In this document: positions 5,225-63,417 of the stretch, piece after piece | Layout of the letters: the number at the start of each line of letters is the position of its first letter | How positions within the stretch are numbered: the stretch's first letter is position 1 | Origin: Escherichia phage vB_EcoM_E9.1 | Sequence record: PP886230 | Reading direction: 5' to 3' (one strand) | DNA: 64,000 bases | Notes under the pieces: generated by a model | What the model was told of the DNA's origin: nothing | The model's database searches: none | What the model saw: only the letters and a program-made list of their open reading frames with translations | Translations under genes and position numbers: made by a program

Positions 5225-6039
5225 GAATTTTAAATATGCTTAAATCTCTTCACGAAACAACCAAATTACATCAGGATGAAAAGTATCGTCGCAGCCTTAC
5301 TAAAGATTTAGCATGTCGTATGTATATGCGTAGATTTGAAATTTCAAGAATTGGTAAAGGCTGGGATGATGTAAATCGTGAAGACATTGATCCAGATGCA
5401 ATTTTTAAAGCATACATGGCTAGAAAAGTTTTCATAAATGAAAAAACTTTTTATATTGATAGTGATAGAGAATTAGAAAATAAATTTACAAAAGGTTTAT
5501 GGAAGATATGGTGTGTTGAAGTATTCGGTGAAGTATTACCTGAGCCACCTGTTCCAGAAACTTATAAAGATTTAAAAAGTATTTTTGATAATGAACATAT
5601 ACATTCAAATTTCTCATTATATGATACTGTGTCAGAAGCTGTATTTTATGGTGAGTTACATGGTCATAACAAATACTTTGATAGTATGGTTAGTTTTGAT
5701 TTGTTTTGTCACTTGCCTGGTGTATCAAGTTGGACATGTGACCAACACAGAGCAAGTAAGATTGATAAGCGAAAATTCTCGGCCCAAAGATTTATGCAAG
5801 TTGCTATGAGTATGTATAAACTTGATTATCTTGGTTGTCCAGAACCATATAAACATTTTTGGAAAGAAAGAGCACAAAAATGTTTAAACTATTGTATAAT
5901 CCGTTTAATGGACACATACATTCTTAAGTTTAGAAATGCAACTGTATACGACATGCCTGAACCACCAAAGAATGAAAAATATCCACCTGTCAAGACATTT
6001 GTATGGTACAAGGATAAAAGTAACAAAAGGATGCACTAA
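5221..6039 (+). CDS. hypothetical protein
   Basis: Track ORF; ATGA overlap with upstream gene. Confidence 0.55.
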   Translation: MRILNMLKSLHETTKLHQDEKYRRSLTKDLACRMYMRRFEISRIGKGWDDVNREDIDPDAIFKAYMARKVFINEKTFYIDSDRELENKFTKGLWKIWCVEVFGEVLPEPPVPETYKDLKSIFDNEHIHSNFSLYDTVSEAVFYGELHGHNKYFDSMVSFDLFCHLPGVSSWTCDQHRASKIDKRKFSAQRFMQVAMSMYKLDYLGCPEPYKHFWKERAQKCLNYCIIRLMDTYILKFRNATVYDMPEPPKNEKYPPVKTFVWYKDKSNKRMH

Positions 6040-17384: not shown

Positions 17385-17836
17385 ATGTTGACGAAATAAA
17401 AAATCATTTTGAAATTGCAATGTCATGTGAATTTGACACACAACGTGTTCATGACCCGAAAGAACATATACGCATTTGTTGTGAATTGTCAGATGATTGT
17501 AATATTTTTATTGGAAAAACCTATGACATGATCGATCTTTCATGTATAGATCCATTGGAAAGAAAAACAAAATATTTATATCTGTACAACACAACATCAG
17601 ATACGATTGCAATACAACTAATATCAACCACAACATCCCAAAGTTATTATAACATAACTGAGGTTAGTAGTTTAACGTTAACCGAAGAAGGATTCTTTCA
17701 ACAATCGCTTATTCGTGAAATTGGTGTTAGTTATGATGAGTTAAATGTATTAGTAGATTGTTTCGAAAAATTGAGTACTTTTGTATTATCCCTTTTTAAT
17801 ATACAGTCGCAAAATCCAATGGTGGTGAAATGCTAA
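17375..17836 (+). CDS. EE-x-FFQ family small protein
   Basis: C-terminal ...EEGFFQQSLIREIGVSYDELNVL... Confidence 0.6.
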   Translation: MRMNVDEIKNHFEIAMSCEFDTQRVHDPKEHIRICCELSDDCNIFIGKTYDMIDLSCIDPLERKTKYLYLYNTTSDTIAIQLISTTTSQSYYNITEVSSLTLTEEGFFQQSLIREIGVSYDELNVLVDCFEKLSTFVLSLFNIQSQNPMVVKC

Positions 17837-18270
17837 ATCCAAGTAAATTTCTCCACTTACTTTCGATAACATCAATACCGGATCTTACCAGTGAAACTAA
17901 TGAATATCGTGAAGCTGGGGTGGTGTCTATGGAACTCGATACATTTGACCACAAATGCTATGTGACATATGACCCACCGCGTTATGGTAAAGAACATTCT
18001 TCTTTTATTTTTGTATTCGTATACACTGTATATGATAATACAACACTTGATGATGTTTGTATTGACACTTACGAAATTTGTGATAATATCATAACTGATG
18101 ACAACAATAATTCATTTGATATGTCACTATATAACACAGAAGAATCGTTGTTTCAACTTAGTACTGTTATTGATGCACCATCATTAGAAGATATAAAACA
18201 ATTTCAAGAACATCTTGACGCAGTTCGTGAGATGTTCTATAATCATTATCCAGAAGTAGAGTTCAATTAA
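17830..18270 (+). CDS. EE-x-FFQ family small protein
   Basis: C-terminal ...EESLFQLSTVIDAPSLEDIKQF... Confidence 0.6.
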   Translation: MLNPSKFLHLLSITSIPDLTSETNEYREAGVVSMELDTFDHKCYVTYDPPRYGKEHSSFIFVFVYTVYDNTTLDDVCIDTYEICDNIITDDNNNSFDMSLYNTEESLFQLSTVIDAPSLEDIKQFQEHLDAVREMFYNHYPEVEFN

Positions 18271-31124: not shown

Positions 31125-31162
<38 letters not shown>

Positions 31163-45351: not shown

Positions 45352-46317
45352 GTGAAAAAGCTTGATTTAAATACAATTGCCGAAGAAGTTCTGGATGAAT
45401 GTTTTGCTAATGAAGAAGTCAACACACTAGAAGCCTTAGATTTCGTTGAAGATAAAGATGATAATGAAGGTAAAGTACAAAGCAGTTTCAAATATAATAT
45501 TACACTTAAGCGACCACCAAATGTTTCCAATGAAGATCTAATTCGTGATATTCAAGCTGGTATCAATGTAAAGAAAAACACTGAACTGTTAGTTCGTTAC
45601 AATTATGGACTGATTATTGATGTAGCAAGTAAATGTACTTGTTATATCCCATTTGAAGATAAGATTTCATATGGTGTTGAGGGGTTCATGAGAGCACTAA
45701 AAACCTTTGATCTTAATAAGAATGTTAAGTTCATTACCTATGCTTCTTCTAGTATTTACATGACAGTCTATAACGAAAGTTCTGACGCTAACTATATGGT
45801 ACACTTCCCACGTTATATGAGTGTTCATAAGATCAAAGTAAAAAGATTCTGCCAGGAATATATGCGTAAACATGGTGTTCGCCCAACACCTGAAATAATC
45901 TCAGAGGGTACTGGGATTGAGATTCAGCATGTTAATAATTGTTTGTTATTTCAAAGCGAATACACTTCGCTGGATGCACCATTAGACGGTGTTACAGATG
46001 GTACATTAGGTGACATTATTCATTCACCTGCTTCTGATTTTAACCTCAATGTTGATAGTATCCGTGCACCTTTGCGTTATGCTATCAATGAACTGACCAA
46101 CGAATTGAGTACTAAAGAACGTGAGATTATCCAGCGTGTTCATGGTCTAGGTGAATATGAACCTGAAACGCTTCGTGAGATTGCTGATAATGGTTTTGTT
46201 GATGATAATGGAAAATATGTTAAATCCCGTTCATCAATACATCGAAAGTACAGTGAAGCTATGCAAAAGCTTAAGAAGTTAGTACTTGCAAAAGGGTACG
46301 AATACGAAGATTTCTAA
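45352..46317 (+). CDS. sigma-70-family RNA polymerase sigma factor
   Basis: Region 2-like ELLVRYNYGLIIDVASKC...VEGFMRALKTFD...FITYASSSIY...HFPRYM; region 4-like KEREIIQRVHGLGEYEPETLREIADN; GTG start 6 nt after AGGAG. Confidence 0.65.
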   Translation: MKKLDLNTIAEEVLDECFANEEVNTLEALDFVEDKDDNEGKVQSSFKYNITLKRPPNVSNEDLIRDIQAGINVKKNTELLVRYNYGLIIDVASKCTCYIPFEDKISYGVEGFMRALKTFDLNKNVKFITYASSSIYMTVYNESSDANYMVHFPRYMSVHKIKVKRFCQEYMRKHGVRPTPEIISEGTGIEIQHVNNCLLFQSEYTSLDAPLDGVTDGTLGDIIHSPASDFNLNVDSIRAPLRYAINELTNELSTKEREIIQRVHGLGEYEPETLREIADNGFVDDNGKYVKSRSSIHRKYSEAMQKLKKLVLAKGYEYEDF

Positions 46318-46324
46318 AGAACAA

Positions 46325-46350
46325 GGGTTGGCTTATGCCAACCTTTTTTT
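46325..46350 (+). terminator. intrinsic terminator
   Basis: AAGGGTTGGC-TTAT-GCCAACCTT hairpin followed by TTTTTTT. Confidence 0.7.
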
Positions 46351-46351
46351 A

Positions 46352-46380
46352 TGGGATGAAGTAAAAGTTTGTGATATAAT
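46352..46380 (+). promoter_or_regulatory. promoter, extended -10 with TGGGAT -35-like element
   Basis: TGGGAT-N17-TGTGATATAAT; same architecture as the tRNA-Ser promoter at 30080. Confidence 0.45.
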
Positions 46381-46874
46381 TATCTTGTACAATTCTGTTG
46401 GCATGATATTCATGTACCTGATCCACTCGAAAACGTAGAGGGCAGTTGAGCAGTCCGACAGTGCGAACAGCAAAAGAAACCCGTTAGATGTGGGCATAGT
46501 TTGAACCCCTCACGGCAATGCGGCTGTATAAAGAACCACGTTAGGATAGCTGGTGGTTCCTTGATAGACATATAAGGATAACACCTTACGAATTATCTAA
46601 GGGAGAGTTATCGAATTTTGTACAGGAAAGTTGCGTCCAAAATTTGAGTACTCACATTAAGTATTTGATTGCATAGATACTTAATGAAGATACACTATGT
46701 TTAAAAGTGTAGACCGTCATATGAAACTGAAGTAGAGAGAAACAGGATGACCCGCTTTCGCACTCTTTATGAGTAATCTTCAATGCAATAGCTCTGATAC
46801 CATCAGCGTCAAATTTCCCTCCTTGTGGGGGGAAGAAAAATCCCTTCCTCAAATCCCGTCAATATTAAAAGTCC
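46381..46874 (+). ncRNA. candidate large structured ncRNA (identity unknown)
   Basis: ~490 nt with stops in all three + frames, visibly GC-richer than flanks, local hairpins (e.g. GAACCAC...GTGGTTC), bounded by promoters at 46352 and 46875. Confidence 0.3.
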
Positions 46875-46903
46875 TTGACAGTTATTAATCATTCGCGTAG
46901 AAT
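46875..46903 (+). promoter_or_regulatory. sigma70-like promoter
   Basis: TTGACA-N17-TAGAAT upstream of CDS 46968. Confidence 0.5.
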
Positions 46904-46967
46904 ACGTAGTATTAGAAGCGAACAGACATCTCGAAGAGATGGATGATTAACCATTAAGGAATATCAA

Positions 46968-52797: not shown

Positions 52798-53030
52798 TAC
52801 TAAGTTTTGTTGTTGCACTATTGTTTATGTTCTATCCTACACTAGTGGCATTAGCCACTAGGCGAACGATGGTAGATCTCACTACTGTATTCTTGCTAAA
52901 CGTGGCATTAGTACTGGTGTCTATTATCATTCCAGTGAGCTTTACAGTTATTGATATTATTTCGGTATTACTCTTCGTGTTAAGTTATCTTATGCTTATT
53001 GAAGAAACAAATGTTGACAAACGTTCGTAG
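52788..53030 (+). CDS. small membrane protein
   Basis: Track ORF; hydrophobic. Confidence 0.45.
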   Translation: MYLVLSFVVALLFMFYPTLVALATRRTMVDLTTVFLLNVALVLVSIIIPVSFTVIDIISVLLFVLSYLMLIEETNVDKRS

Positions 53031-53041
53031 TACTGTATAAT
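53014..53041 (+). promoter_or_regulatory. sigma70-like promoter
   Basis: TTGACA-N16-TGTATAAT overlapping the end of CDS 52788..53030. Confidence 0.55.
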
Positions 53042-53088
53042 GGTTCCTGTAGTCTGAAACTTAACACTTAAACTTGAGGTAAAAAAAT

Positions 53089-53415
53089 ATGCTATCAGTA
53101 CTAATTTCAATTCCGTCTTTAATTCTGATTTGGCTTCTGGTTTACGAATGCTTTATTACTGATGATAATGATAAAAAAGAGTTCTCTGAGTTGTTTATGC
53201 TTGATTCACCGATTGTGCGTATTTTCTATACAGTCGTTGTGGTTTCAGTAATTGTATGGATTTTGAGTTTTATCTTCCCACTCGGTGCAGTAGTTAAAAC
53301 TTTGGATTTAGTTGAGAACTTTGTTGCAATTATGTGGCTAATCAAAGCACTATTTGCAGGAAATGTTAAAATTTGGATTGATATTATCAAATTCAAGTTC
53401 ACGAATAAGATGTAA
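53089..53415 (+). CDS. membrane protein
   Basis: Track ORF; RBS TGAGGTAAA. Confidence 0.5.
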   Translation: MLSVLISIPSLILIWLLVYECFITDDNDKKEFSELFMLDSPIVRIFYTVVVVSVIVWILSFIFPLGAVVKTLDLVENFVAIMWLIKALFAGNVKIWIDIIKFKFTNKM

Positions 53416-53493
53416 CAGTGAAAATATCTCTATAGTATTAAATACTTCTGTACATATATATAGTACAGAAGTATTTCTCGTTAGAGGTTTGTT

Positions 53494-53853
53494 ATGAAGA
53501 GTTATATAAAATTAATAGCACTTGTGTGTGCATTATTTTCATGTTTTAGTTATGGTGCAGCAGCAGAAACATATTGTCGTAGTACTAAGGGAACGTGGCA
53601 TGTATTGACTAACGACCCTAGAAATGGTAAAAATATAGTTGTTGATGGTGTGATTTATCGTTTTAAAGTAGAAAGTATTATCGGTAATAAAAAAATCTCG
53701 ACTTATAGAGATGATTCTGGTACATTAGCAAACGTAATATTAATTGTAGACCCAAGAACTGGTAATGGTGATATCTATATAGTAATTTACTTGGACTCAT
53801 CGGTACGCCGTGACCTAGATATAGATAAATTGAACTTACACTGTGAAATATAG
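53494..53853 (+). CDS. secreted protein (signal peptide)
   Basis: N-terminal MKSYIKLIALVCALFSCFSYGAAA. Confidence 0.5.
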   Translation: MKSYIKLIALVCALFSCFSYGAAAETYCRSTKGTWHVLTNDPRNGKNIVVDGVIYRFKVESIIGNKKISTYRDDSGTLANVILIVDPRTGNGDIYIVIYLDSSVRRDLDIDKLNLHCEI

Positions 53854-53864
53854 GACTTAAAAAA

Positions 53865-54242
53865 ATGGTAAACACTATTTTACTTTTGTTGTTGAATATT
53901 CCAATTATTCTGTCTTTTTTAATTTCTATTTTTATGGCAGGATATTGTTTAGTTGCAGTAATTCATTTCATTTTAACAAACAAATATGTCCTAATTTCTA
54001 AGCTTGATTCTATTTTTGCTTGCGATTCGATTGCTTATAACTTGTGGTTAATTTGTTCTTGCATTATGGGAGTAACTTTCCTTCTGTATGTATTTGATGT
54101 CCTTGACCAAAAGTTCGTATACATCAGTACTGGATTGGCTCTTTATCCTGCTACGTGGTACTTGATTTACGTTGGTGATATATGGTATAGTACTTATAAA
54201 GAATATCAGTACAAGAAATCACTTAACGTTGGAGGAAAATAA
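53865..54242 (+). CDS. integral membrane protein
   Basis: Track ORF; multiple hydrophobic segments. Confidence 0.5.
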   Translation: MVNTILLLLLNIPIILSFLISIFMAGYCLVAVIHFILTNKYVLISKLDSIFACDSIAYNLWLICSCIMGVTFLLYVFDVLDQKFVYISTGLALYPATWYLIYVGDIWYSTYKEYQYKKSLNVGGK

Positions 54243-54244
54243 TC

Positions 54245-54595
54245 ATGAAAATTATTTTATTTTTTGTATGTATGTTAATGTGTGGATTGTCATATGCTGA
54301 ACCATTGGAAGGTTTAGTTTGTACAGATGGTAATATTAAACATATCTATCAAGGTGATAGTGACGATCGAGATATTGTATATATTGATGGACAATCATAT
54401 ACGTTTGTTAAAGAGCATACAGTAGGCGACATTAGCTTCACTGAGTTTTCTAACGACACAGACCCTAACTTCTTAGCGTTTATTGAAGTAGATGTATATG
54501 AAGATAGTAATGGCACACAATATGCTAAATTAGTTATGATGCGTCGTGGTGCTAAAGAAACTAGTTTTGGTGGCTTGTGTAAATATAAGGATTGA
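54245..54595 (+). CDS. secreted protein (signal peptide)
   Basis: N-terminal MKIILFFVCMLMCGLSYA. Confidence 0.5.
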   Translation: MKIILFFVCMLMCGLSYAEPLEGLVCTDGNIKHIYQGDSDDRDIVYIDGQSYTFVKEHTVGDISFTEFSNDTDPNFLAFIEVDVYEDSNGTQYAKLVMMRRGAKETSFGGLCKYKD

Positions 54596-54599
54596 TATT

Positions 54600-54791
54600 A
54601 TGTTGATTTATCAAAGTGATAATATTCGTGTTATGCAGCATCCCTACTTACAAATCTTTGATGTGCAGCAGTATATGGAAGGTGATGACCCAAGAACCTA
54701 TGGTCGTAAGTATGATTACTTCACTGTAAAGCAGTGTAAAAATATTAACGAAGTACGACAATTAGTTCAAGAACTTCAAAACAAAGGTTGA
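54600..54791 (+). CDS. hypothetical small protein
   Basis: Internal ATG of track ORF 54546..54791 behind AAGGA. Confidence 0.4.
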   Translation: MLIYQSDNIRVMQHPYLQIFDVQQYMEGDDPRTYGRKYDYFTVKQCKNINEVRQLVQELQNKG

Positions 54792-54817
54792 CTTCGGTCA
54801 GCCTTTTTTGTTATAAT
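54784..54817 (+). terminator. terminator-promoter cassette, copy 1 of 5
   Basis: AAGGTTGAC-TTCG-GTCAGCCTT hairpin + TTTTTT overlapping stop codon; TTGACT in the stem and TATAAT 18 nt downstream. Confidence 0.6.
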
Positions 54818-54845
54818 TCTCTTAATAAATTAGAGGATTTTAATT

Positions 54846-55286
54846 ATGTATGTATATCGTTTTGAACTTAAATTTAGTTACATTGAACCTAACTTAGATC
54901 CTGCACGAACTGTAGGTCCGTTTGCACGGTATTCAACTAGATACAGTACTAAAAATGGATTTGACCGTTTGCTTATGACTACACCTTCTCAATTCCAACC
55001 TGAACCAACTGAGGATGGGATCTATTCAATCAAAAGTGGATGGGTATTTGGCTGTCAAAGTTTGAAAGATTTGTTCAGATTCTTCACTATGGACTTGGGT
55101 AAATTGCATCGTGCTGGGTTTGCTATATCTGTATATGAAGTTCCAGACCACCATGTAGACATTGGTCGTAATCAGGTTCAGTACTATTGCGGTAGTGCTA
55201 AATTAGTTCGTATCATGTCAGTTAAGGAAGCAAAGGATGAGTTCCGACAAAGTAAAAGAGAAACACATGAGGTAATATATGGATAA
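54846..55286 (+). CDS. hypothetical protein
   Basis: Track ORF; RBS AGAGGA. Confidence 0.5.
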   Translation: MYVYRFELKFSYIEPNLDPARTVGPFARYSTRYSTKNGFDRLLMTTPSQFQPEPTEDGIYSIKSGWVFGCQSLKDLFRFFTMDLGKLHRAGFAISVYEVPDHHVDIGRNQVQYYCGSAKLVRIMSVKEAKDEFRQSKRETHEVIYG

Positions 55287-55623
55287 AACTCAAATAGAAT
55301 TAAAGAAATTTGTTTCATTCTATTTTCCTGATGACCCACGTAATTCACAAAAAGATATTGAATATTATAATATCCTATCTAAACAGTTAATGAGAAAGTT
55401 TCAACAGTGTTTAACTATATTCAATACAGATGGAAGACGTAGATACCGAATCGTTTCAATGAATGATGAAAACGCAAATTTCTTTGATTACGATGTAGTT
55501 TTTAGAGCATATAATGATGATCGTATAAAATTAAATTATGATCAAATTATACTTGACCTGAATGTTATATGTGTTATAATCACTCACGTAGCCGAACTTA
55601 ATGGTTTTAAAGAATGGTATTGA
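55279..55623 (+). CDS. hypothetical protein
   Basis: Track ORF. Confidence 0.5.
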   Translation: MDKTQIELKKFVSFYFPDDPRNSQKDIEYYNILSKQLMRKFQQCLTIFNTDGRRRYRIVSMNDENANFFDYDVVFRAYNDDRIKLNYDQIILDLNVICVIITHVAELNGFKEWY

Positions 55624-55637
55624 ATAGAGGATAACAT

Positions 55638-55904
55638 ATGAAGCTTAAATTACAATATAATGGATTTACTTTACGTAATGATACTGAATTTATTAATCGT
55701 TCTCCTGGTGCTGAACTGTTTTTACGAGAGATGAACATTCCTTTCATCATTACTACAGTGGGCGACCGTGAAGTTCTACAATATGCAGAGCATCCGATTA
55801 TTGATGTTCCTTGGTACTCTGAGCATATGTACATGGATATGGCACGTCGCTACAACTGTAAGTTCGTAGTTGAAGGTGATAAAATTACAGTCGAATTTAA
55901 ATAA
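55638..55904 (+). CDS. hypothetical protein
   Basis: Track ORF; RBS AGAGGA. Confidence 0.5.
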   Translation: MKLKLQYNGFTLRNDTEFINRSPGAELFLREMNIPFIITTVGDREVLQYAEHPIIDVPWYSEHMYMDMARRYNCKFVVEGDKITVEFK

Positions 55905-55916
55905 GGTAAATTAAAA

Positions 55917-56210
55917 ATGATCAGTACTTCAGTTAATGAAAGCATCGTCGCTGACGTAGAAATGGTTAAAGAATGTGCAGATGAAACTCTTCGTGATATG
56001 TACATTAATGATTTAATTACTGAATACGGTAGTCGTGGTGTACACGAATTTATTCGTTTAAGTGGAGAGTTGATGAAAAATCGAATTCGTATGAAGCTTA
56101 ACGTACATCCAAAAGCATGGGCATTTACATTAAAATACGCAGAAGATATTGTGAATTTGCGTCGAACTGAAGTATATGAACGTTTGCACAATGGTATGTT
56201 AGATAAATGA
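55917..56210 (+). CDS. hypothetical protein
   Basis: Track ORF. Confidence 0.5.
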   Translation: MISTSVNESIVADVEMVKECADETLRDMYINDLITEYGSRGVHEFIRLSGELMKNRIRMKLNVHPKAWAFTLKYAEDIVNLRRTEVYERLHNGMLDK

Positions 56211-56262
56211 TTGTAAAAAAGGAATTCTTAAATGAATTCCTTTTTGTTTATAAGGTATAGTA

Positions 56263-56484
56263 ATGAAATATATAGTACTTGTACTGATATTATTCAGTAC
56301 TGTTGTAAGTGCTAAACAAAAAGAATATGTTAAATGTATAAATTATGAAGAGAAATATGTTGAAACATATAAAAAAAGTATAATTAAAAACGTTTCGATT
56401 ACTAACAGAGCAACAATCATTGTACTTAAAAATGGGTTAATTATGCTATATAAACCACACGTTAAATGTGAAATTATTAATTGA
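56263..56484 (+). CDS. small secreted protein
   Basis: N-terminal MKYIVLVLILFSTVVSA. Confidence 0.45.
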   Translation: MKYIVLVLILFSTVVSAKQKEYVKCINYEEKYVETYKKSIIKNVSITNRATIIVLKNGLIMLYKPHVKCEIIN

Positions 56485-56491
56485 GGAAATT

Positions 56492-57064
56492 ATGAATCGT
56501 AAAGGTCGTTTTAAAGTATCAAAAAAGAACAAAAGTTCTAGGTTTAAACCTATTGTTTTAACAGTTAAATCTAACAAAGAATTAACTGCACTTAGTAAAA
56601 AGATAATTTCATCTAAGATTGAAGTATCATACGTAAATTCATTAAAATATATGAATGTCAAACCACTGGACCAACTCATTTCACTTATATTTGAACGTAA
56701 TGATTTTGAGATATCAGTAGATGATTATAGAGCCTATAATGCTGGTTTCATTAATGTTACTTGTAATAAAAAACTAACTGAGTTGGAAAATTTGTCATGT
56801 ATAATAAATCTAGATAAAGGTGTTGTGAAGTACCATTTTGTACATTTCACTAATATCAATAATGGAATGGGTGTACAATCCAGACCTATAGTGCCTACGT
56901 GTGATGTTACTAAATTAGCAAAGCTCAATGATGAAGAATATTTTCAAGAAAGCATTGTAACTGAGCATTTAGATGATATAATAGCTACTTACAAAGAATG
57001 CATATGGGTGTTGAATGCTATAAAACCTAAATTGTGTTTAATGAATATTGTTCGTGATTTATGA
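56492..57064 (+). CDS. EE-x-FFQ family protein
   Basis: ...NDEEYFQESIVTEHLDDIIATYKE...; ATG 56492 behind GAGGAAA. Confidence 0.55.
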   Translation: MNRKGRFKVSKKNKSSRFKPIVLTVKSNKELTALSKKIISSKIEVSYVNSLKYMNVKPLDQLISLIFERNDFEISVDDYRAYNAGFINVTCNKKLTELENLSCIINLDKGVVKYHFVHFTNINNGMGVQSRPIVPTCDVTKLAKLNDEEYFQESIVTEHLDDIIATYKECIWVLNAIKPKLCLMNIVRDL

Positions 57065-57077
57065 ATGGGGAATCGTA

Positions 57078-57521
57078 ATGAGTTGGGTAAATGTTAATAG
57101 TATTGAACTTAACGAACAAGATATTTTTGCATTTGTAAATTTAACTAATAACACAGTACTAAAAGGGCGTTTGTTCAGTGCTAGTGATGGGTACAAATGG
57201 ATCTCTTTGATGGATGATAGTGGTGTGATTTATAATGTAATGCAATTACCCCAATGGGTATATAGTAACACTGCTGACGATGTTCTTACCGCAGTTATGC
57301 GTGAGTTTGAAAAACTCCCAGGTGGTGATATCAAAAACAAAGTTTTTAATGCAGAACGTAAAAATTATACAGCACAGCAGTTGGAATCCCTTGCCATTGC
57401 TGCTTATCAAGCTGCTATTAAGAAGCCAGAGTGCGTTATTCTTAAGTATGTACCAGACTTAAAACTTACGTTGGAAGACATGGATGCATTCATTTTTACA
57501 TCTGAACTTGATCAGTACTAA
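57078..57521 (+). CDS. hypothetical protein
   Basis: Track ORF 57048..57521 (TTG); ATG 57078 behind GGGGAA. Confidence 0.5.
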   Translation: MSWVNVNSIELNEQDIFAFVNLTNNTVLKGRLFSASDGYKWISLMDDSGVIYNVMQLPQWVYSNTADDVLTAVMREFEKLPGGDIKNKVFNAERKNYTAQQLESLAIAAYQAAIKKPECVILKYVPDLKLTLEDMDAFIFTSELDQY

Positions 57522-57528
57522 TTTAACT

Positions 57529-57558
57529 TTGGGACAACCATTCTTATTATGATATAAT
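57529..57558 (+). promoter_or_regulatory. promoter, extended -10 with TTGGGA -35-like element
   Basis: TTGGGAC-N17/18-TATGATATAAT; ~80-nt leader with hairpin TGTCATT...AATGACA. Confidence 0.45.
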
Positions 57559-57636
57559 GTTTTATGTCATTCGATATAAATGACAACGGAACTATAAATA
57601 TTATAGTAAAATTTATCTCTTATAGGAGTTATAAAA

Positions 57637-58020
57637 ATGGTTGATAAATGGAATAAGAAAGATCCATCACATGATGTTGATATTTCTGGTCTAGACAATG
57701 CACATAAGCACAAGTATCTAGATTCACTAGGTCTTCTAAAACCAGACCAAAGTCTTGCACATGATCGTCCATCCCGTGAAAAAGCATTTAGCCTAGAATC
57801 ACTAGGTCATGAGCTTAATCGTGTGTTTGAGGATCACCCAATCTATGTACGTGATATTATCGAGAAACTTAAAGTAACTCCTAAAGAGCACTTTAAAGCA
57901 ACTGTACACTCTGCATTCCGTGCATTACATGAATCTCTAAAGAAAACTCACAATCTTCGTAAAATTCATGATGAAATCGTGAATGCAATCGAAAGTGAAA
58001 AACATAAGTTCAAGAAGTAA
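57637..58020 (+). CDS. hypothetical protein (shares SLGLL motif with 58266..59543)
   Basis: Track ORF; RBS TAGGAG; ...HKHKYLDSLGLLKPDQ... Confidence 0.5.
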   Translation: MVDKWNKKDPSHDVDISGLDNAHKHKYLDSLGLLKPDQSLAHDRPSREKAFSLESLGHELNRVFEDHPIYVRDIIEKLKVTPKEHFKATVHSAFRALHESLKKTHNLRKIHDEIVNAIESEKHKFKK

Positions 58021-58025
58021 TAAAA

Positions 58026-58060
58026 AGGGGTTGACTAAGGTCAGCCCTTTGTTGTATCAT
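58026..58060 (+). terminator. terminator-promoter cassette, copy 2 of 5 (variant loop TAAG)
   Basis: GGGTTGAC-TAAG-GTCAGCCC hairpin + TTTGTTG; TTGACT in the stem, TATCAT downstream. Confidence 0.5.
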
Positions 58061-58089
58061 AAATTCTCAATATAACTGAGGTATCATAT

Positions 58090-58203
58090 ATGCAAGGTTT
58101 GAAATTTGTAGTTGCTGCACTCATCGCCGCAGTACTGGTTGGTGGTGTATTCTATGTAGTGGATCAAAAAGTAAATCCACCTGCACAAGAACAATCTAAG
58201 TAA
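58090..58203 (+). CDS. small membrane peptide (37 aa)
   Basis: Below track cutoff; RBS TGAGG; MQGLKFVVAALIAAVLVGGVFYVV... Confidence 0.4.
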   Translation: MQGLKFVVAALIAAVLVGGVFYVVDQKVNPPAQEQSK

Positions 58204-58209
58204 CAAAAT

Positions 58210-58242
58210 AAGGTTGACTTCGGTCAGCCTTTTCTTTATACT
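58210..58242 (+). terminator. terminator-promoter cassette, copy 3 of 5
   Basis: AAGGTTGAC-TTCG-GTCAGCCTT hairpin + TTTCTTT; TTGACT-N17-TATACT. Confidence 0.55.
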
Positions 58243-58265
58243 ATAAATATAGACATAGAGAAAAA

Positions 58266-59543
58266 ATGAAATCTATGGAGAGAAATCAAATGCCAAGTAA
58301 TTTTACTGATAAAAATGGTGGTAACATGGCTGGTCACTCTGATAAATGGAGTGAACGCAACCGCCGTCCAAATAGTTATCAAGCAGGTCAAGGTTCACGT
58401 GGATCACGTAACCAAGGAACTGGTCTAGCTGGTAAAGCAAACGCAGAAGCAGGTGAAGTTAAGAGTACTGAGAACATGACTGAGCTAGAAAAGCTACGTT
58501 ATGTTAATTCATTGGGACTTCTTAATGCTACACAAAAACAACGCCTAGCTGATATGGAACGTGAAGAAAAAGAAAAATCTGCTCCTGCTAAAGAAGAACC
58601 AAAACAAGAAGCACCAAAGGCGGTTAACCCTGTCAAAGAACTGTCGGATAAGTTAGGTAAGATTTTTGCTAATAAACCACAACTTATCCAAGGTATTGTG
58701 AAAGAATTGCAATCTGTACCTAAAGAAGAATTAAAAGTCAAAGCACAAGCTGTGCTTGATGCAATGAGTGGAAATACCAGTACTGAACCAACTGAAGTAT
58801 TCAGTACTATAATGCGTGCACTTGAAGGTACGCAACAAGGTGATGTGCCTGCACAAGAGGAAGTAAGTCTTGAAAGCGTACTTAAAACATTTGATAGTAT
58901 TGGTAAAGAAGACCGTGCTAATGCTCAACAAGTTAAGAATGTACTAGCTAAGTTAGAAAACCGTCTGGAAGGTAAAGACGATAAGATTAAATTAGTATCT
59001 GATGCAGTTAACGATGCACTTAAATCTTATGTACAAGGTGAAAAGAGTCGTTTTGTAACTGCAATGGATGCTGCATTCAATACTATGAAAAAGTATGAAG
59101 CTGATCATGGTGAGAAGGTTACACGAGATGGTTATCTGATGCGTGATGATGAAGAAGGTGCAGTAGAACAGAACGATGTTCATTCAGACGAAGAAATTGA
59201 TGACATGGAAGCTGAACTGTCACAAGACCGCCAAATGACTGAAAAATCCCATAACGAACTACAGAAATTAATGCAATGGGTTGCAGATGTTGGTGAAAAA
59301 GCTGGTGCTGATAAGAAGAGTATAAACCGAAATCTTAGTTGGATTAAAGATAAAGTTGGTAACAACGCTCGTAAACTACAAAAAGCGTGGACTGATGTAG
59401 TGAATGGTGCTGTTGACATTGATGTTGAATCCGGTGAGGCATATGATTATGCATTGACTACACTTGATGACTCTTTCCGTGATTACGAAAATGGAAATGT
59501 AACTCCTTGGGAAAAGGACATCATGAGCAAATACGGTAAATGA
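58266..59543 (+). CDS. hypothetical protein (425 aa), Gly/Ser-rich N-terminus, acidic coiled-coil rest
   Basis: Track ORF; ...LEKLRYVNSLGLLNATQ... paralogous to 57637 motif. Confidence 0.55.
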   Translation: MKSMERNQMPSNFTDKNGGNMAGHSDKWSERNRRPNSYQAGQGSRGSRNQGTGLAGKANAEAGEVKSTENMTELEKLRYVNSLGLLNATQKQRLADMEREEKEKSAPAKEEPKQEAPKAVNPVKELSDKLGKIFANKPQLIQGIVKELQSVPKEELKVKAQAVLDAMSGNTSTEPTEVFSTIMRALEGTQQGDVPAQEEVSLESVLKTFDSIGKEDRANAQQVKNVLAKLENRLEGKDDKIKLVSDAVNDALKSYVQGEKSRFVTAMDAAFNTMKKYEADHGEKVTRDGYLMRDDEEGAVEQNDVHSDEEIDDMEAELSQDRQMTEKSHNELQKLMQWVADVGEKAGADKKSINRNLSWIKDKVGNNARKLQKAWTDVVNGAVDIDVESGEAYDYALTTLDDSFRDYENGNVTPWEKDIMSKYGK

Positions 59544-59551
59544 TAAAACAA

Positions 59552-59584
59552 AAGGTTGACTTCGGTCAGCCTTTTTTTGTAAAT
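59552..59584 (+). terminator. terminator-promoter cassette, copy 4 of 5
   Basis: AAGGTTGAC-TTCG-GTCAGCCTT hairpin + TTTTTTT overlapping stop; TTGACT in stem. Confidence 0.6.
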
Positions 59585-59614
59585 ACAAAAGAGGAATTAA
59601 GAAGAGGGATTACA

Positions 59615-59866
59615 ATGAAAAAATATATTATATTTGGAATTGTATTATTTTCCAGTACTGCTTATGGTGCAGATTATCATTGCTCCGTAGCAAGGCAGGA
59701 TTTCAGAAATGGGGAGTTCTATACTACCTCATACACAAAAGGAATAATACACGACACCGACAGAACTATTGGATTTAATGCGTTTGACAACAAAGATTCA
59801 TATACTTCAGGTATACTATCTGAGCGTAAGACTGATGTAATGGGAATAGAAAAAGAGTTCCGGTGA
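59615..59866 (+). CDS. secreted protein (signal peptide)
   Basis: Internal ATG of track ORF 59540..59866 behind AGAGGGA; MKKYIIFGIVLFSSTAYGA. Confidence 0.5.
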   Translation: MKKYIIFGIVLFSSTAYGADYHCSVARQDFRNGEFYTTSYTKGIIHDTDRTIGFNAFDNKDSYTSGILSERKTDVMGIEKEFR

Positions 59867-59876
59867 TTCAGTAGCA

Positions 59877-60176
59877 ATGTGCAATGGCATTGAAAGTACT
59901 AAAACAATTTATTATAATAATGAACGTAACTATCGTTTTCATAATTTAACCACAAATAAAAGTTTACTATTTTACAATTGTAAAGAAGTAATACTCCCAT
60001 CAGACAATAGCTGTACTCCAACTAATCAACCCCCAGCACAATGTAATACTCCCTCTGAACCTGATAAAAATAAAAAAGACAAAAAACCTTTAAAAGATAA
60101 AAAGAAAGATAAAAAACCTAATCCGTTTAAAAATAATAAACAAGCACAACCCGATATGACGTGTAAAATAAAATAA
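59877..60176 (+). CDS. hypothetical protein with Lys-rich low-complexity tail
   Basis: Track ORF; ...DKNKKDKKPLKDKKKDKKPNPF... Confidence 0.35.
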   Translation: MCNGIESTKTIYYNNERNYRFHNLTTNKSLLFYNCKEVILPSDNSCTPTNQPPAQCNTPSEPDKNKKDKKPLKDKKKDKKPNPFKNNKQAQPDMTCKIK

Positions 60177-60185
60177 GGATATATA

Positions 60186-60605
60186 ATGAAAAAGATTTTT
60201 TTAAGTATTATTTTAGTACTTTTTAGTTTTAATGTATATGCAGCAGATGCTAAACAGGTTGCAAATACAGTAAAAGATGTTATAGTAGATAATGCTCCTA
60301 CATTAGAGGAAATTGGGGTAAAAACTTGTGATATAGTAATATATAATTTAGTTAATGATGAACGAGTTATGTTGAATACGTATGAACAAGTAGTCCCATT
60401 GGTTGAATCTGGTGATGCTTTTAGCTTTACATATAAAGTTAAATTAACAGGAGGGGTTGAAGTTAATCTTGACATTGATACCGCTTCAGTACTAAAAGAT
60501 AAACTAGGATATGTGTTCAATCGTATTCGTGAAGAAGGTCATCTTAAGTATGTTTATGAAAGTAAAATACTAAAACGTGCAATAGTTATAGAAAACTGTA
60601 AATGA
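60186..60605 (+). CDS. secreted protein (signal peptide)
   Basis: N-terminal MKKIFLSIILVLFSFNVYAADA. Confidence 0.5.
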   Translation: MKKIFLSIILVLFSFNVYAADAKQVANTVKDVIVDNAPTLEEIGVKTCDIVIYNLVNDERVMLNTYEQVVPLVESGDAFSFTYKVKLTGGVEVNLDIDTASVLKDKLGYVFNRIREEGHLKYVYESKILKRAIVIENCK

Positions 60606-60611
60606 TAATAA

Positions 60612-60646
60612 AAGGGTTGACTTCGGTCAGCCTTTTTTGTTATGAT
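60612..60646 (+). terminator. terminator-promoter cassette, copy 5 of 5
   Basis: AAGGGTTGAC-TTCG-GTCAGCCTT hairpin + TTTTTT; TTGACT-N18-TATGAT. Confidence 0.6.
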
Positions 60647-60674
60647 GTTGGTATTAACTACAGAGGATAAAGTA

Positions 60675-61316
60675 ATGACTAAGCAAGACATATTCAAAAC
60701 TTTAATTGACATTTTGCGTCCATCAAAAACTCGTTGTGCGATGGAGTTTGATATTCCTTATGCTGAACGCGTAATCTTTCCACAAGTTAAAGCTGCTGGA
60801 CTTACTTTGCTTGGAATGGGGATGTACTCTGTAGTAGTTGAACATAAAAACTATCCTGGGCGTGCATTTAAAGTAACCACTTCACGCTGGGATGGTTTTC
60901 GTGCTTATGCAAAGTACTGCATTGAAAACGCAGGAACCAAGTTTCTTCCAGTGATCTACAGTGCAAACGAACAAGGAAACTTTGGATGGTATGAGATGGA
61001 CAAGTACTATCCTATAATTAAACAAAAAAATAATTATGATGACTTTGTTAGTACTAAAATTGGAGATTTATATTCTTATGCACATGCTGGTCAGTACGCT
61101 ACTTCAGTGAATGATATGCGTGGAAATTCTGAAGAGATTGCTATTGCGACGGTCGCTGCTAACATCATGAAAGAGTTTCACGGGCGTTTTGTACCAGACA
61201 TTCATTCCAGTAATGTCATGATGGATAAAGATGGCAATGTATTCATTACTGATCCTCTTTCGTGTGATGTACGTAGAGAAATACCAGTTACTGAAGAAGA
61301 TCCAGTTTTTTATTGA
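60675..61316 (+). CDS. hypothetical protein, possible protein-kinase-like fold
   Basis: ...FVPDIHSSNVMMDKDGNVFITDPLS... resembles kinase catalytic loop (D-x-H-x2-N) plus metal-binding Asp; ATG 60675 behind AGAGGA. Confidence 0.45.
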   Translation: MTKQDIFKTLIDILRPSKTRCAMEFDIPYAERVIFPQVKAAGLTLLGMGMYSVVVEHKNYPGRAFKVTTSRWDGFRAYAKYCIENAGTKFLPVIYSANEQGNFGWYEMDKYYPIIKQKNNYDDFVSTKIGDLYSYAHAGQYATSVNDMRGNSEEIAIATVAANIMKEFHGRFVPDIHSSNVMMDKDGNVFITDPLSCDVRREIPVTEEDPVFY

Positions 61317-61377
61317 CAGAACTGATGTTCTGGTGTATTCTTAATAAACCATAAAAATTGCGGTAAAGGATAAAATC

Positions 61378-61659
61378 ATGCGTTCATTTGAAAACTTAAT
61401 AGGTAAGCATCTTTTATCTGAAATTGATGCAGACGTTAAAGAATTATCCAAATCAAAAAGTTACATTCATTTGGATGAACTGTTTATTAAGTACGGTGAG
61501 ATTGGTTTTAAGTCATTATTTGTTTTTACTATGAAAGTACATAGTTTAAAGTACTTCGATTTGAGTGCTAAAGATGGTGAACCGAATCTATATTACATGT
61601 ATTACCTTAAGAACAAAGATGAAGCTAATACATTACTCTCTGAATATATATTGGGGTAA
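61378..61659 (+). CDS. hypothetical protein
   Basis: Track ORF; RBS AAAGGA. Confidence 0.5.
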   Translation: MRSFENLIGKHLLSEIDADVKELSKSKSYIHLDELFIKYGEIGFKSLFVFTMKVHSLKYFDLSAKDGEPNLYYMYYLKNKDEANTLLSEYILG

Positions 61660-61661
61660 AA

Positions 61662-62000
61662 ATGGAACAATATTTTGAATTAATAAACAAAGTATCATTT
61701 TATGTAGTATCTTTGGTTTGGGTGTATTATATGTTTTGCTACATTATTGCATTCTTCCGATACACTACTTTATATGAACGTATCTATTATGATGCCCCAA
61801 TTTCATTCTTGATGTTTTGTGCATGTACGTGGGGAATATTAGAAGTACTGATATGTGGGTATAGTACTGATGAATTAAATCTGGTATCGGTCTTGACTGG
61901 GTTTTCATTTGTTGTTATGATAGCTGCCGTTCCAGTATGGTTGTTCTTTGGACTAGTTCATCGCATTGATATATGGCGTTCTAATATCCCTGAAAAGTAA
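61662..62000 (+). CDS. membrane protein, tandem paralog 1 of 3
   Basis: Hydrophobic; C-terminal ...RSNIPEK. Confidence 0.5.
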   Translation: MEQYFELINKVSFYVVSLVWVYYMFCYIIAFFRYTTLYERIYYDAPISFLMFCACTWGILEVLICGYSTDELNLVSVLTGFSFVVMIAAVPVWLFFGLVHRIDIWRSNIPEK

Positions 62001-63341: not shown

Positions 63342-63342
63342 G

Positions 63343-63370
63343 TTGACAAACACATTCAGTACTGTATAAT
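63343..63370 (+). promoter_or_regulatory. sigma70-like promoter
   Basis: TTGACA-N16-TGTATAAT upstream of CDS 63418. Confidence 0.6.
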
Positions 63371-63417
63371 GCTTATCAAGGGGATGAACTTCTCATCCCT
63401 ACAATCGAGGAACTACC

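Follow-up and report, generated by a model that had tools for sequence, protein, structure and literature searches.

Promoter-early stem-loop (PeSL) cassettes are known from T4-type phages, where they were described in RB49 and phi1 (Arbiol et al. 2010, PMC2839356) and in PST/T4 and nt-1/KVP40 (Comeau et al. 2014, PMC4122927). Five subclasses of PeSL have been described, one of which has a stem-loop that overlaps the −35 box; PeSLs showed both termination and promoter activity in lacZ reporter assays, as well as recombination into mini-circles (PMC2839356). They have also been implicated in insertions and deletions (indels) in the pairs RB49/phi1, PST/T4 and nt-1/KVP40 (PMC2839356, PMC4122927). 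Here we analyse five near-identical hairpin elements in a 64,000-nucleotide stretch of Escherichia phage vB_EcoM_E9.1 (record PP886230; this whole stretch is referred to as the window), which belongs to Asteriusvirus, a group of Rak2-like jumbo coliphages. Escherichia phage JP4 is 99.6% identical over the region, and phAPEC6, SP27, 121Q, PBECO4 and G17, which are likewise Asteriusvirus, Rak2-like jumbo myoviruses of ~350 kb, are 96–99% identical to it. We consider it likely that the five copies are compact bifunctional terminator–promoter cassettes of the PeSL type, situated where this phage has its early or accessory genes.

Five copies of one hairpin element

A search of the window for TTGACTTCGGTCAGCCTT, allowing at most 3 mismatches, returned exactly five sites (54788, 58031, 58214, 59556 and 60617, by which the copies are named below), all on the + strand, compared to 0.02 in shuffled sequences. 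An independent repeat search of the window gave one family of five 43-nt copies. These results bear out an earlier note on this DNA, which had listed five near-identical copies of a UUCG-type hairpin. The element is ~40–45 nt long and is laid out as AAAGG(G)-TTGAC-loop-GTCAG-CC(C)-T-run; an A-tract lies ahead of every copy, and a T-run of 4–7 follows each of the five stems. The 18-nt core GGTTGACTTCGGTCAGCC is identical in four of the five copies, the variant being copy 58031, in which the loop is TAAG (UAAG as RNA) and the stem is GGGG/CCC. The same note had placed the copies at or overlapping stop codons, and here, too, it proved correct: a stop codon lies 4–8 nt before each copy or is overlapped by it. 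In the overlapping case, the TGA stop (54789–54791) of the gene 54600–54791 is the TGA within the TTGAC of copy 54788. At 54789–54791, the stop codon, the −35 TTGACT and the terminator stem use the same bases, which would thus serve three functions.

As + strand RNA, the five hairpins comprise 9–12 bp, with folding energies from −12.4 to −17.0 kcal/mol and z-scores from −4.5 to −5.6, compared to only about −8 kcal/mol for the − strand fold of the cassettes, which is weaker because the U.G wobble turns into an A.C mismatch. The hairpin and the T-run of the cassettes together constitute a predicted intrinsic terminator. An Rfam scan of 53000–62000 yielded no known RNA family, the only hit being a sub-threshold match to MicX (23 bits vs. 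a gathering score of 75).

Promoter phasing and selection on the RNA

The earlier note had further proposed that TTGACT in the 5′ arm forms a promoter with a TATAAT-like hexamer 17–18 nt downstream and that each cassette ends one transcript and starts the next. In a consensus scan, such a hexamer was found 17–18 nt past TTGACT in four of the five copies, preceded by TGn in two of them (54788 and 60617). The proposed spacing therefore stands for these four copies and, as shown below, for most of their relatives, but not for copy 59556; likewise, the double role is retained in so far as there is a predicted terminator at all five copies and a sigma-70 −10 hexamer at four, with 59556 again the exception. 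In a simple promoter scan, the region did not exceed shuffled sequences in the number of promoter-like sites (66 vs. 70.4), and in the absence of enrichment in such scans the argument for a promoter therefore rests on phasing and on controls.

To quantify the phasing, we assembled a set of 107 distinct TTGAC-N4-GTCA hairpins with at least 3 further outer pairs, taken from all fetched loci of this and other phages. A TAnnnT hexamer with at least 5/6 matches to TATAAT was present at a spacer of 17 or 18 nt in 78 of the 107 hairpins, compared to 0–5 of 107 at each other offset from 8 to 39, and the hexamer was preceded by TGn, that is, formed an extended −10, in 69. As a control, we examined the identical 18-mer in bacteria, where it occurs ~50 times in 185,579 genomes, 22 of these occurrences being terminator-like (with A-tract and T-run). 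Only 2 of these 22 bacterial terminators carried such a −10, vs. 37 of the 45 occurrences of the 18-mer in viral contigs (Fisher p = 8.7 × 10−9). Given that the −10 is rare at bacterial copies of the 18-mer, the phage −10 is no by-product of the hairpin or of AT-richness.

These comparisons make it distinctly unlikely that the copies are plain intrinsic terminators in which TTGAC and the TATAAT-like hexamers arise incidentally from the AT-richness of the genome and from the T-run. This explanation does agree with the public annotation: the G17 record marks all five sites as ‘putative transcriptional terminator, ARNOLD’, the hairpins are likewise marked as terminators in the UE-S1 and GAP32 records, and the supplement of the CBB paper lists identical hairpins among the terminators and not among the predicted RpoD-like promoters. 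It also agrees with the occurrence of the exact 18-mer GGTTGACTTCGGTCAGCC as a plain A-tract/T-run terminator in Acinetobacter (~8 species), Exiguobacterium, Vibrio, Bacteroidetes and Bdellovibrio, with the lack of a −10 at copy 59556 and with the promoter scan. However, it accounts neither for the near-exclusive placement of the −10 at 17–18 nt, with TGn in most cases, nor for the difference between bacterial and viral copies, nor for the conservation of TTGAC next to covarying positions. Copies retrieved with the core left unconstrained keep TTGAC intact and show covariation at adjacent stem positions, as in the 58031 variant with its TAAG loop and in a variant with three substitutions, GGGATTGAC...GTCAGTCCC; this suggests that the 5′ arm is under constraint beyond base pairing. 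The invariance of TTGAC within the set of 107 proves nothing, because the search pattern fixed TTGAC. The first T of TTGAC is in a U.G wobble pair in 95 of the 107 hairpins, and the wobble G would keep the opposite strand from having a TTGAC of its own.

Across the window, 41 of the 43 sites of the form TTGACN-N16-18-TAnnnT are on the + (coding) strand, a bias that fits dense use of sigma-70-type promoters in the region. At the cassettes, a GAGG-type Shine-Dalgarno sequence with an ATG follows 29–48 nt past the −10. A gene for a phage sigma-70-like factor is located inside the window as well (JP4 75264–76229, approximately 45950–46920 in the window).

The loop is TTCG in 70 of the 107 hairpins, and the remaining loops are mostly UNCG (TCCG, TACG) or GNRA (GAAA, GAGA, GCAA, GTAA, GCGA). 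In an alignment of 79 distinct 30-mers, 94% of the cells of the 12-bp stem pair, and both-sided changes occur in five pairs (30 cells), a count that was reached by 0 of 500 shuffles. The hairpin is thus selected at the RNA level, and its outer stem pairs covary. One alternative role at that level is that of a post-transcriptional 3′ end stabiliser or processing site in a read-through polycistronic RNA, with no real termination or re-initiation. UUCG-capped hairpins protect 3′ ends from exonucleases, and the annotation of the T7 0.7-like kinase encoded nearby includes modulation of RNase III and RNase E. PeSL stem-loops have, moreover, been called ‘terminator/attenuator’ (PMC2839356). Nevertheless, we regard this role as very unlikely, given that it leaves the phased extended −10 and the conserved TTGAC unexplained and that a U-run right after the stem is what marks an intrinsic terminator.

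A protein-binding site is even harder to accommodate. The core resembles FNR-type boxes (the FNR box is TTGAT-N4-ATCAA, and FNR activation is typically centred at −41.5, in class II promoters), and the TTGAC-N4-GTCA(A/G) palindrome might accordingly bind a dimeric protein, such as a host regulator of the FNR/CRP family, a phage repressor, a recombinase or a homing endonuclease. Several copies adjoin HNH or homing-endonuclease genes, a literature search with the 13-mer returned one paper only, an unrelated study of global transcription-factor regulons, and the PeSL authors also speculated on a targeted recombinase (PMC2839356). However, in place of the symmetric palindrome at about −41.5 that characterises FNR/CRP sites, the half-sites are asymmetric in 95 of the 107 hairpins (TTGAC/CTGAC, with GTCAG and not GTCAA), and the centre of the box is, by our own calculation, near −29 from the predicted start. 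Furthermore, the conserved, covarying outer stem and the T-run would be needless for a 14-bp box, and the loops are stable RNA tetraloops, all of which renders protein binding highly improbable as the explanation of the element. Finally, there is scarcely any likelihood that the copies are a small selfish repeat of the miniature inverted-repeat transposable element (MITE) or repetitive extragenic palindromic (REP) kind, self-spreading and secondarily tolerated between genes: near-identical clustered copies are indeed many per genome and occur in several phage lineages, but they lack terminal inverted repeats beyond the hairpin, target-site duplications and a transposase link, always have the orientation of the genes, occupy precisely the gap from a stop codon to the following ribosome-binding site, and are few in absolute terms (7 exact copies in 121Q).

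Under the preferred reading, that of PeSL-type terminator–promoter cassettes, the upstream transcript would form the 9–12 bp hairpin with its C(UUCG)G tetraloop and, with the U-run, would undergo intrinsic termination inside the spacer of the next promoter. At the DNA level, the −35 TTGACT would come from the 5′ arm, with the preceding A-tract where an UP element would sit, the T-run would serve as the spacer, and the TGnTATAAT-like extended −10 would follow at 17–18 nt. The host sigma-70 RNA polymerase would start a new transcript ~12 nt past the termination point, 20–30 nt ahead of the following Shine-Dalgarno sequence and ATG, and the new RNA would have a leader of ~20 nt with a GAGG-type ribosome-binding site. 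The upstream RNA would thus carry the hairpin at its 3′ end, and the downstream RNA would lack it. As near-identical direct repeats of 40–45 nt, the cassettes would also offer short homologies for phage recombination and would therefore double as recombination points for the deletion, insertion or exchange of blocks among related phages. Termination, initiation, timing and the mechanism of recombination are, in this scheme, predicted from features read directly off the sequence, namely the structure, the covariation, the −35/−10 coupling and the hairpin-bounded indels described in the next section. Three copies would fit this scheme in full: 54788 and 60617, with a terminator and an early promoter that has an 18-nt spacer, and 58031, with a weaker promoter.

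The two remaining copies appear to be different. The motif TATAAATA, the gp55-dependent late promoter motif of T4-type phages, is strongly avoided in the window, with 3 sites found vs. 11.7 expected (57593–57600, 58242–58249 and, on the − strand, 17573–17580), and two of the three sites are 37–41 nt upstream of the virion structural genes 57637 and 58290, which stand in a region that otherwise looks early. The CBB paper reports ATAAATA ahead of structural genes. Given that TATAAATA is rare in the window and yet stands directly after copy 58214, before a virion gene, a late transcript is probably started there, and this copy probably combines a terminator with a T4-type late promoter, instead of or besides an early promoter. 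Copy 59556 is probably a terminator only, or else a terminator with a weak late-type promoter. The late promoter at 57593 is cassette-free, and TATAAATA is not part of the repeated element. We also noticed GTAAATA after the T-run in several cassettes that lack a sigma-70 −10, as TGTAAATA, AGTAAATA and GGTAAATA (59578–59585 in the window, ~5565–5580 in the compared locus of UB and ~2215 in the compared locus of RaK2), and which may act in Rak2-like phages as a late or middle promoter of a variant type.

Gene blocks and their exchange between relatives

In the genomes compared here, the cassettes delimit blocks that are present or absent as units in related phages (coordinates in the table). In UE-S1 and ph0011, which are ~88–92% identical to the window, one hairpin stands in place of copies 58031 and 58214, and the intervening gene for the 37-aa protein (58090–58203) is missing; similarly, one hairpin replaces copies 59556 and 60617, and the three genes in 59615–60605 are missing. 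In both cases the single hairpin is chimeric, matching the left copy at its upstream flank and the right copy at its downstream flank, and therefore the junction is within the ~40-nt repeat. UB carries a 257-aa gene where the window has the 37-aa one, and its left junction falls inside the hairpin of copy 58031, whereas in WPEC3 there are two extra genes between the equivalents of copies 58031 and 58214, and the kinase and copy 60617 are absent. Blocks that are present or absent with junctions inside the hairpin act as separable modules. By contrast, the length variation of the structural gene 58290–59543 is internal and unrelated to the cassettes.

Table. Coordinates in the window of the five cassettes, their predicted promoter elements and the adjoining genes.
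Feature	Position	Strand	Description
Cassette 1	54780–54817	+	A-tract and hairpin 54783–54806, −13.4 kcal/mol, z −4.5
Cassette 1 promoter			TTGACT 54788–54793 inside 5′ arm; T-run; TGtTATAAT to 54817 (−10 TATAAT 54812–54817); 11/12 match, with TG
Block 1	54846–57521	+	Eight small genes of unknown function, after cassette 1
Virion structural protein gene	57637–58020	+	phrog_16530; late motif 57593–57600; ends at cassette 2
Cassette 2 (variant)	58022–58060	+	Hairpin 58025–58050, −17.0 kcal/mol, z −4.9
Cassette 2 promoter			TTGACT 58031–58036; −10 TATCAT 58055–58060; no extended TG
Module between cassettes 2 and 3	58090–58203	+	Gene for a 37-aa hydrophobic protein
Cassette 3	58206–58249	+	Hairpin 58210–58231, −12.4 kcal/mol, z −5.6
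Cassette 3 promoter			TTGACT 58214–58219; weak −10 TATACT 58237–58242; TATAAATA 58242–58249 overlaps −10
Virion structural protein gene, cassettes 3 to 4	58290–59543	+	phrog_20398 and phrog_16530
Cassette 4	59548–59585	+	Hairpin 59550–59575, −14.3 kcal/mol; TTGACT 59556–59561; T7 run
Cassette 4 promoter			No sigma-70 −10; TGTAAATA 59578–59585, one mismatch from late motif
Module between cassettes 4 and 5	59615–60605	+	Three small genes, two with signal-peptide-like N-termini
Cassette 5	60608–60646	+	Hairpin 60610–60637, −14.8 kcal/mol, z −5.3
Cassette 5 promoter			TTGACT 60617–60622; extended −10 TGtTATGAT to 60646 (−10 TATGAT 60641–60646); 10/12 match, with TG
T7 gp0.7-like protein kinase gene	60675–61316	+	phrog_15752, 4e-91; downstream of cassette 5

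The blocks hold one to eight genes, with eight in block 1 and three between cassettes 4 and 5, and the view of the earlier note that individual genes are insulated has to be given up for one of insulated blocks. Searches with ten flanking proteins found no Pfam matches, and the only PHROGs annotations were ‘virion structural protein’ and the gp0.7-like kinase. The N-terminus of the product of 58290–59543 is paralogous to the product of 57637–58020. The gene 58290–59543 is ~240–300 nt longer in G17, PBECO4 and UB, and ~700 nt of it are deleted in Salmonella phage SD-15_S21. Within block 1 there is an unrelated hairpin terminator at ~56218–56239. Between cassettes 4 and 5, the open reading frames (ORFs) 59615–59866 and 59877–60176 are 10 nt apart, with a signal peptide on the first alone; the second is 24 nt longer in JP4, and both overlap in WPEC3, so that the two may be one frameshift-split gene.

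The earlier note had asked for a search beyond the cluster, and further copies were indeed found in JP4 and 121Q. In addition to the five window copies, JP4 has four more and one degenerate copy at 95.1–98.5 kb, just past the end of the window, which flank genes for an HNH endonuclease, endonuclease V and a homing endonuclease. A duplicated small-ORF block of JP4 at 124–164 kb has one exact copy and three of a compensatory variant, GGGATTGAC-TCCG-GTCAGTCCC. Over the first 200 kb of JP4, the part that our scan for variants covered, every copy is at 84.7–98.5 kb or in the small-ORF block at 124–164 kb. In 121Q, a whole-genome exact-match scan found 7 exact copies, the flanks of which are the same two regions as in JP4; genome-wide counts accordingly derive from this exact-match scan of 121Q in IMG/VR and from blastn place counts. 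Every copy is co-oriented with the genes. The duplicated block of JP4 (PQ330092, ~124–164 kb) is a 20,114-bp sequence present twice in tandem, probably a terminal repeat, and is full of ORFs of 60–100 aa with a promoter ahead of each.

Beyond these genomes, the cassette, often letter for letter through the −10, is present in 146–173 phage records. These include Rak2-like phages of Klebsiella, Salmonella, Cronobacter, Pectobacterium, Erwinia, Serratia and Yersinia, as well as KVP40-like Vibrio phages, Aeromonas 65-like T4-type phages, Cronobacter CR3-like phages, a Stenotrophomonas jumbo phage and the Gram-positive Brochothrix phage A9. We rejected this identity across phages as proof of horizontal transfer, because the same 18-mer is a terminator ~22 times in unrelated bacteria. 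The recurrence of the 18-mer in bacteria is far above chance for its context and suggests a convergent ‘good terminator’ sequence; with nearly every base constrained and the bare hairpin arising independently in bacteria, convergence is a sufficient explanation. That the cassette as a whole (A-tract, GGGTTGAC-UUCG-GTCAGCCC, T-run and TGnTATAAT) is a regulatory linker swapped horizontally among unrelated large lytic phages is thus, in our judgement, unlikely. If it did spread by descent, it would provide a common recombination site for swapping ready-to-express modules across family boundaries. In addition, recycling of the polymerase after termination is known, and as the point of termination lies within the promoter, a polymerase that has just terminated might start again in place.

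Several observations weigh against reading the five copies as bifunctional, recombining cassettes. The A-tract is able to pair with much of the U-run in two copies, which could lower the efficiency of termination. No acceptable sigma-70 −10 was found by the consensus scan at copy 59556, where GTAAAT/TAAATA is in its place, and the −10 of copy 58214 is weak and beside a late promoter. The 107 hairpins are not independent, as many are orthologues and all were found via a search for the core, and counts such as 78/107 overstate the number of independent events; likewise, the covariation set was chosen for at least 3 outer pairs, and its inner five pairs were fixed by the search. Each indel may have been a loss or a gain, and because any 40-nt repeat gives the same junctions by homologous recombination, no dedicated mechanism is implied. 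Mapping of RNA 5′ or 3′ ends of any Asteriusvirus is absent from the searchable literature; a search for transcriptomics of Asteriusvirus and Rak2-like phages returned RNA-seq only for the distant Pseudomonas phage PA5oct, and the RaK2 paper contains no promoter analysis.

Two other groups of promoters were observed in the window. The first, a repeated family GTTGACAAAC...AGTACTGTATAATG, is hairpin-free, keeps an AGTACTG spacer and is present at 53013–53045, 57530–57562 and 63342–63374, with many more copies in the 124–164 kb block of JP4. The second consists of sigma-70-like promoters with a different hairpin design over the −35, for example AGTAC-TTGACTAAATAGTTCA-GTACT, with −9 to −14 kcal/mol, at 18215, 31134, 31895 and 35513. 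These AGTAC-type hairpin promoters resemble other PeSL subclasses, and those at 31134 and 31895 are in a tRNA gene region.

Relation to known systems

The feature is real and well supported, and it most likely represents PeSL-type cassettes in a group in which they are annotated only as terminators. The terminator reading is already public, in GenBank records and in the CBB paper, whereas the dual terminator–promoter reading is new for the Rak2-like group. Sites that are annotated solely as terminators should therefore be re-annotated as terminator–promoter pairs, which changes operon predictions across the Rak2-like group. For a phage of 350 kb whose small genes of unknown function number in the hundreds, the cassettes provide a testable model of early transcription in short insulated units, and one that also shows how relatives come to lose, gain and swap such units. 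The element can, furthermore, be regarded as a naturally optimised 45-nt insulator, with three functions in overlapping bases, which makes it of practical interest to phage engineering and synthetic biology.

Compared to known intrinsic terminators of the C(UUCG)G type, the cassettes have the same GC-rich stem, extra-stable UNCG or GNRA tetraloop and U-run, and are predicted by ARNOLD; they differ in that the phage stem also holds a −35 and is followed, after the U-run, by a phased extended −10, which the bacterial copies do not have. Likeness to T4-type late promoters is confined to cassette 3 and to the cassette-free site 57593.

The modules, in turn, had been described in the earlier note as being of the moron type. 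The moron concept of Juhala and Hendrix reportedly refers to lambdoid and HK97-like temperate phages. Morons belong to temperate phages, are expressed from the prophage, often have an atypical base composition and share no repeated boundary cassette, whereas Asteriusvirus jumbo phages are related to the lytic T4-type phages and are themselves known as lytic. Like morons, the modules 58090–58203 and 59615–60605 are autonomous promoter–gene–terminator units that lie between conserved genes and are variably present, and to this extent the description is apt. Unlike morons, they are bounded by a repeated element, and their G+C content (GC) is within the range of the genome: module GC is 0.30–0.40, compared to a 1-kb range of 0.26–0.40 in the window, so that base composition is not informative and we did not retain it as an argument for foreign origin. 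The label ‘moron’ thus fits the modular logic of these units but not the definition, which involves a temperate phage, expression from the prophage and, often, atypical GC; their precise known counterpart is the PeSL.

Among the papers that we found using the term PeSL, none concerns the Rak2-like group. With PeSLs the window cassettes have in common an AT-rich stretch, sigma-70-like −35 and −10 boxes, a GC-rich stem-loop with G.T pairs, a Shine-Dalgarno sequence and an ATG, as well as the direct orientation, the location between small ORFs of variable (hyperplastic) regions and the indel or swap junctions inside the cassettes. Thus, of the properties by which PeSLs are recognised, we found the promoter (with 17–18 nt between its boxes in four of the five copies, where PeSLs have 16–18 nt), the stem-loop, the AT tract with the Shine-Dalgarno sequence, the variable region of small ORFs, mostly of unknown function, and the junctions, but not the genome of a T4-like myovirus: the phage of the window is a Rak2-like Asteriusvirus and does not fall in the T4-like subfamily, on which the definition of PeSLs was based, and according to the CBB paper the Rak2-like group has only a minority of the T4 core genes in common. 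The nt-1/KVP40 PeSL consensus is A3-4G3-loop-C3T3-4 with the −35 TTGYVH (PMC4122927); the window stem fits this form, whereas the −35 differs from TTGACT, in a comparison in which the KVP40-like loci contained few elements. The very same hairpin core is, however, present in KVP40-like Vibrio phages. The window design is also unusually uniform, in that the 5′ arm invariably holds the −35, the loop is UUCG and the T-run forms the spacer, and one copy joins the terminator to the late promoter TATAAATA. The reporter and mini-circle data on PeSLs come from T4-type phages. Taken together, these comparisons overturn nothing in the PeSL concept and extend it beyond the T4-like phages.

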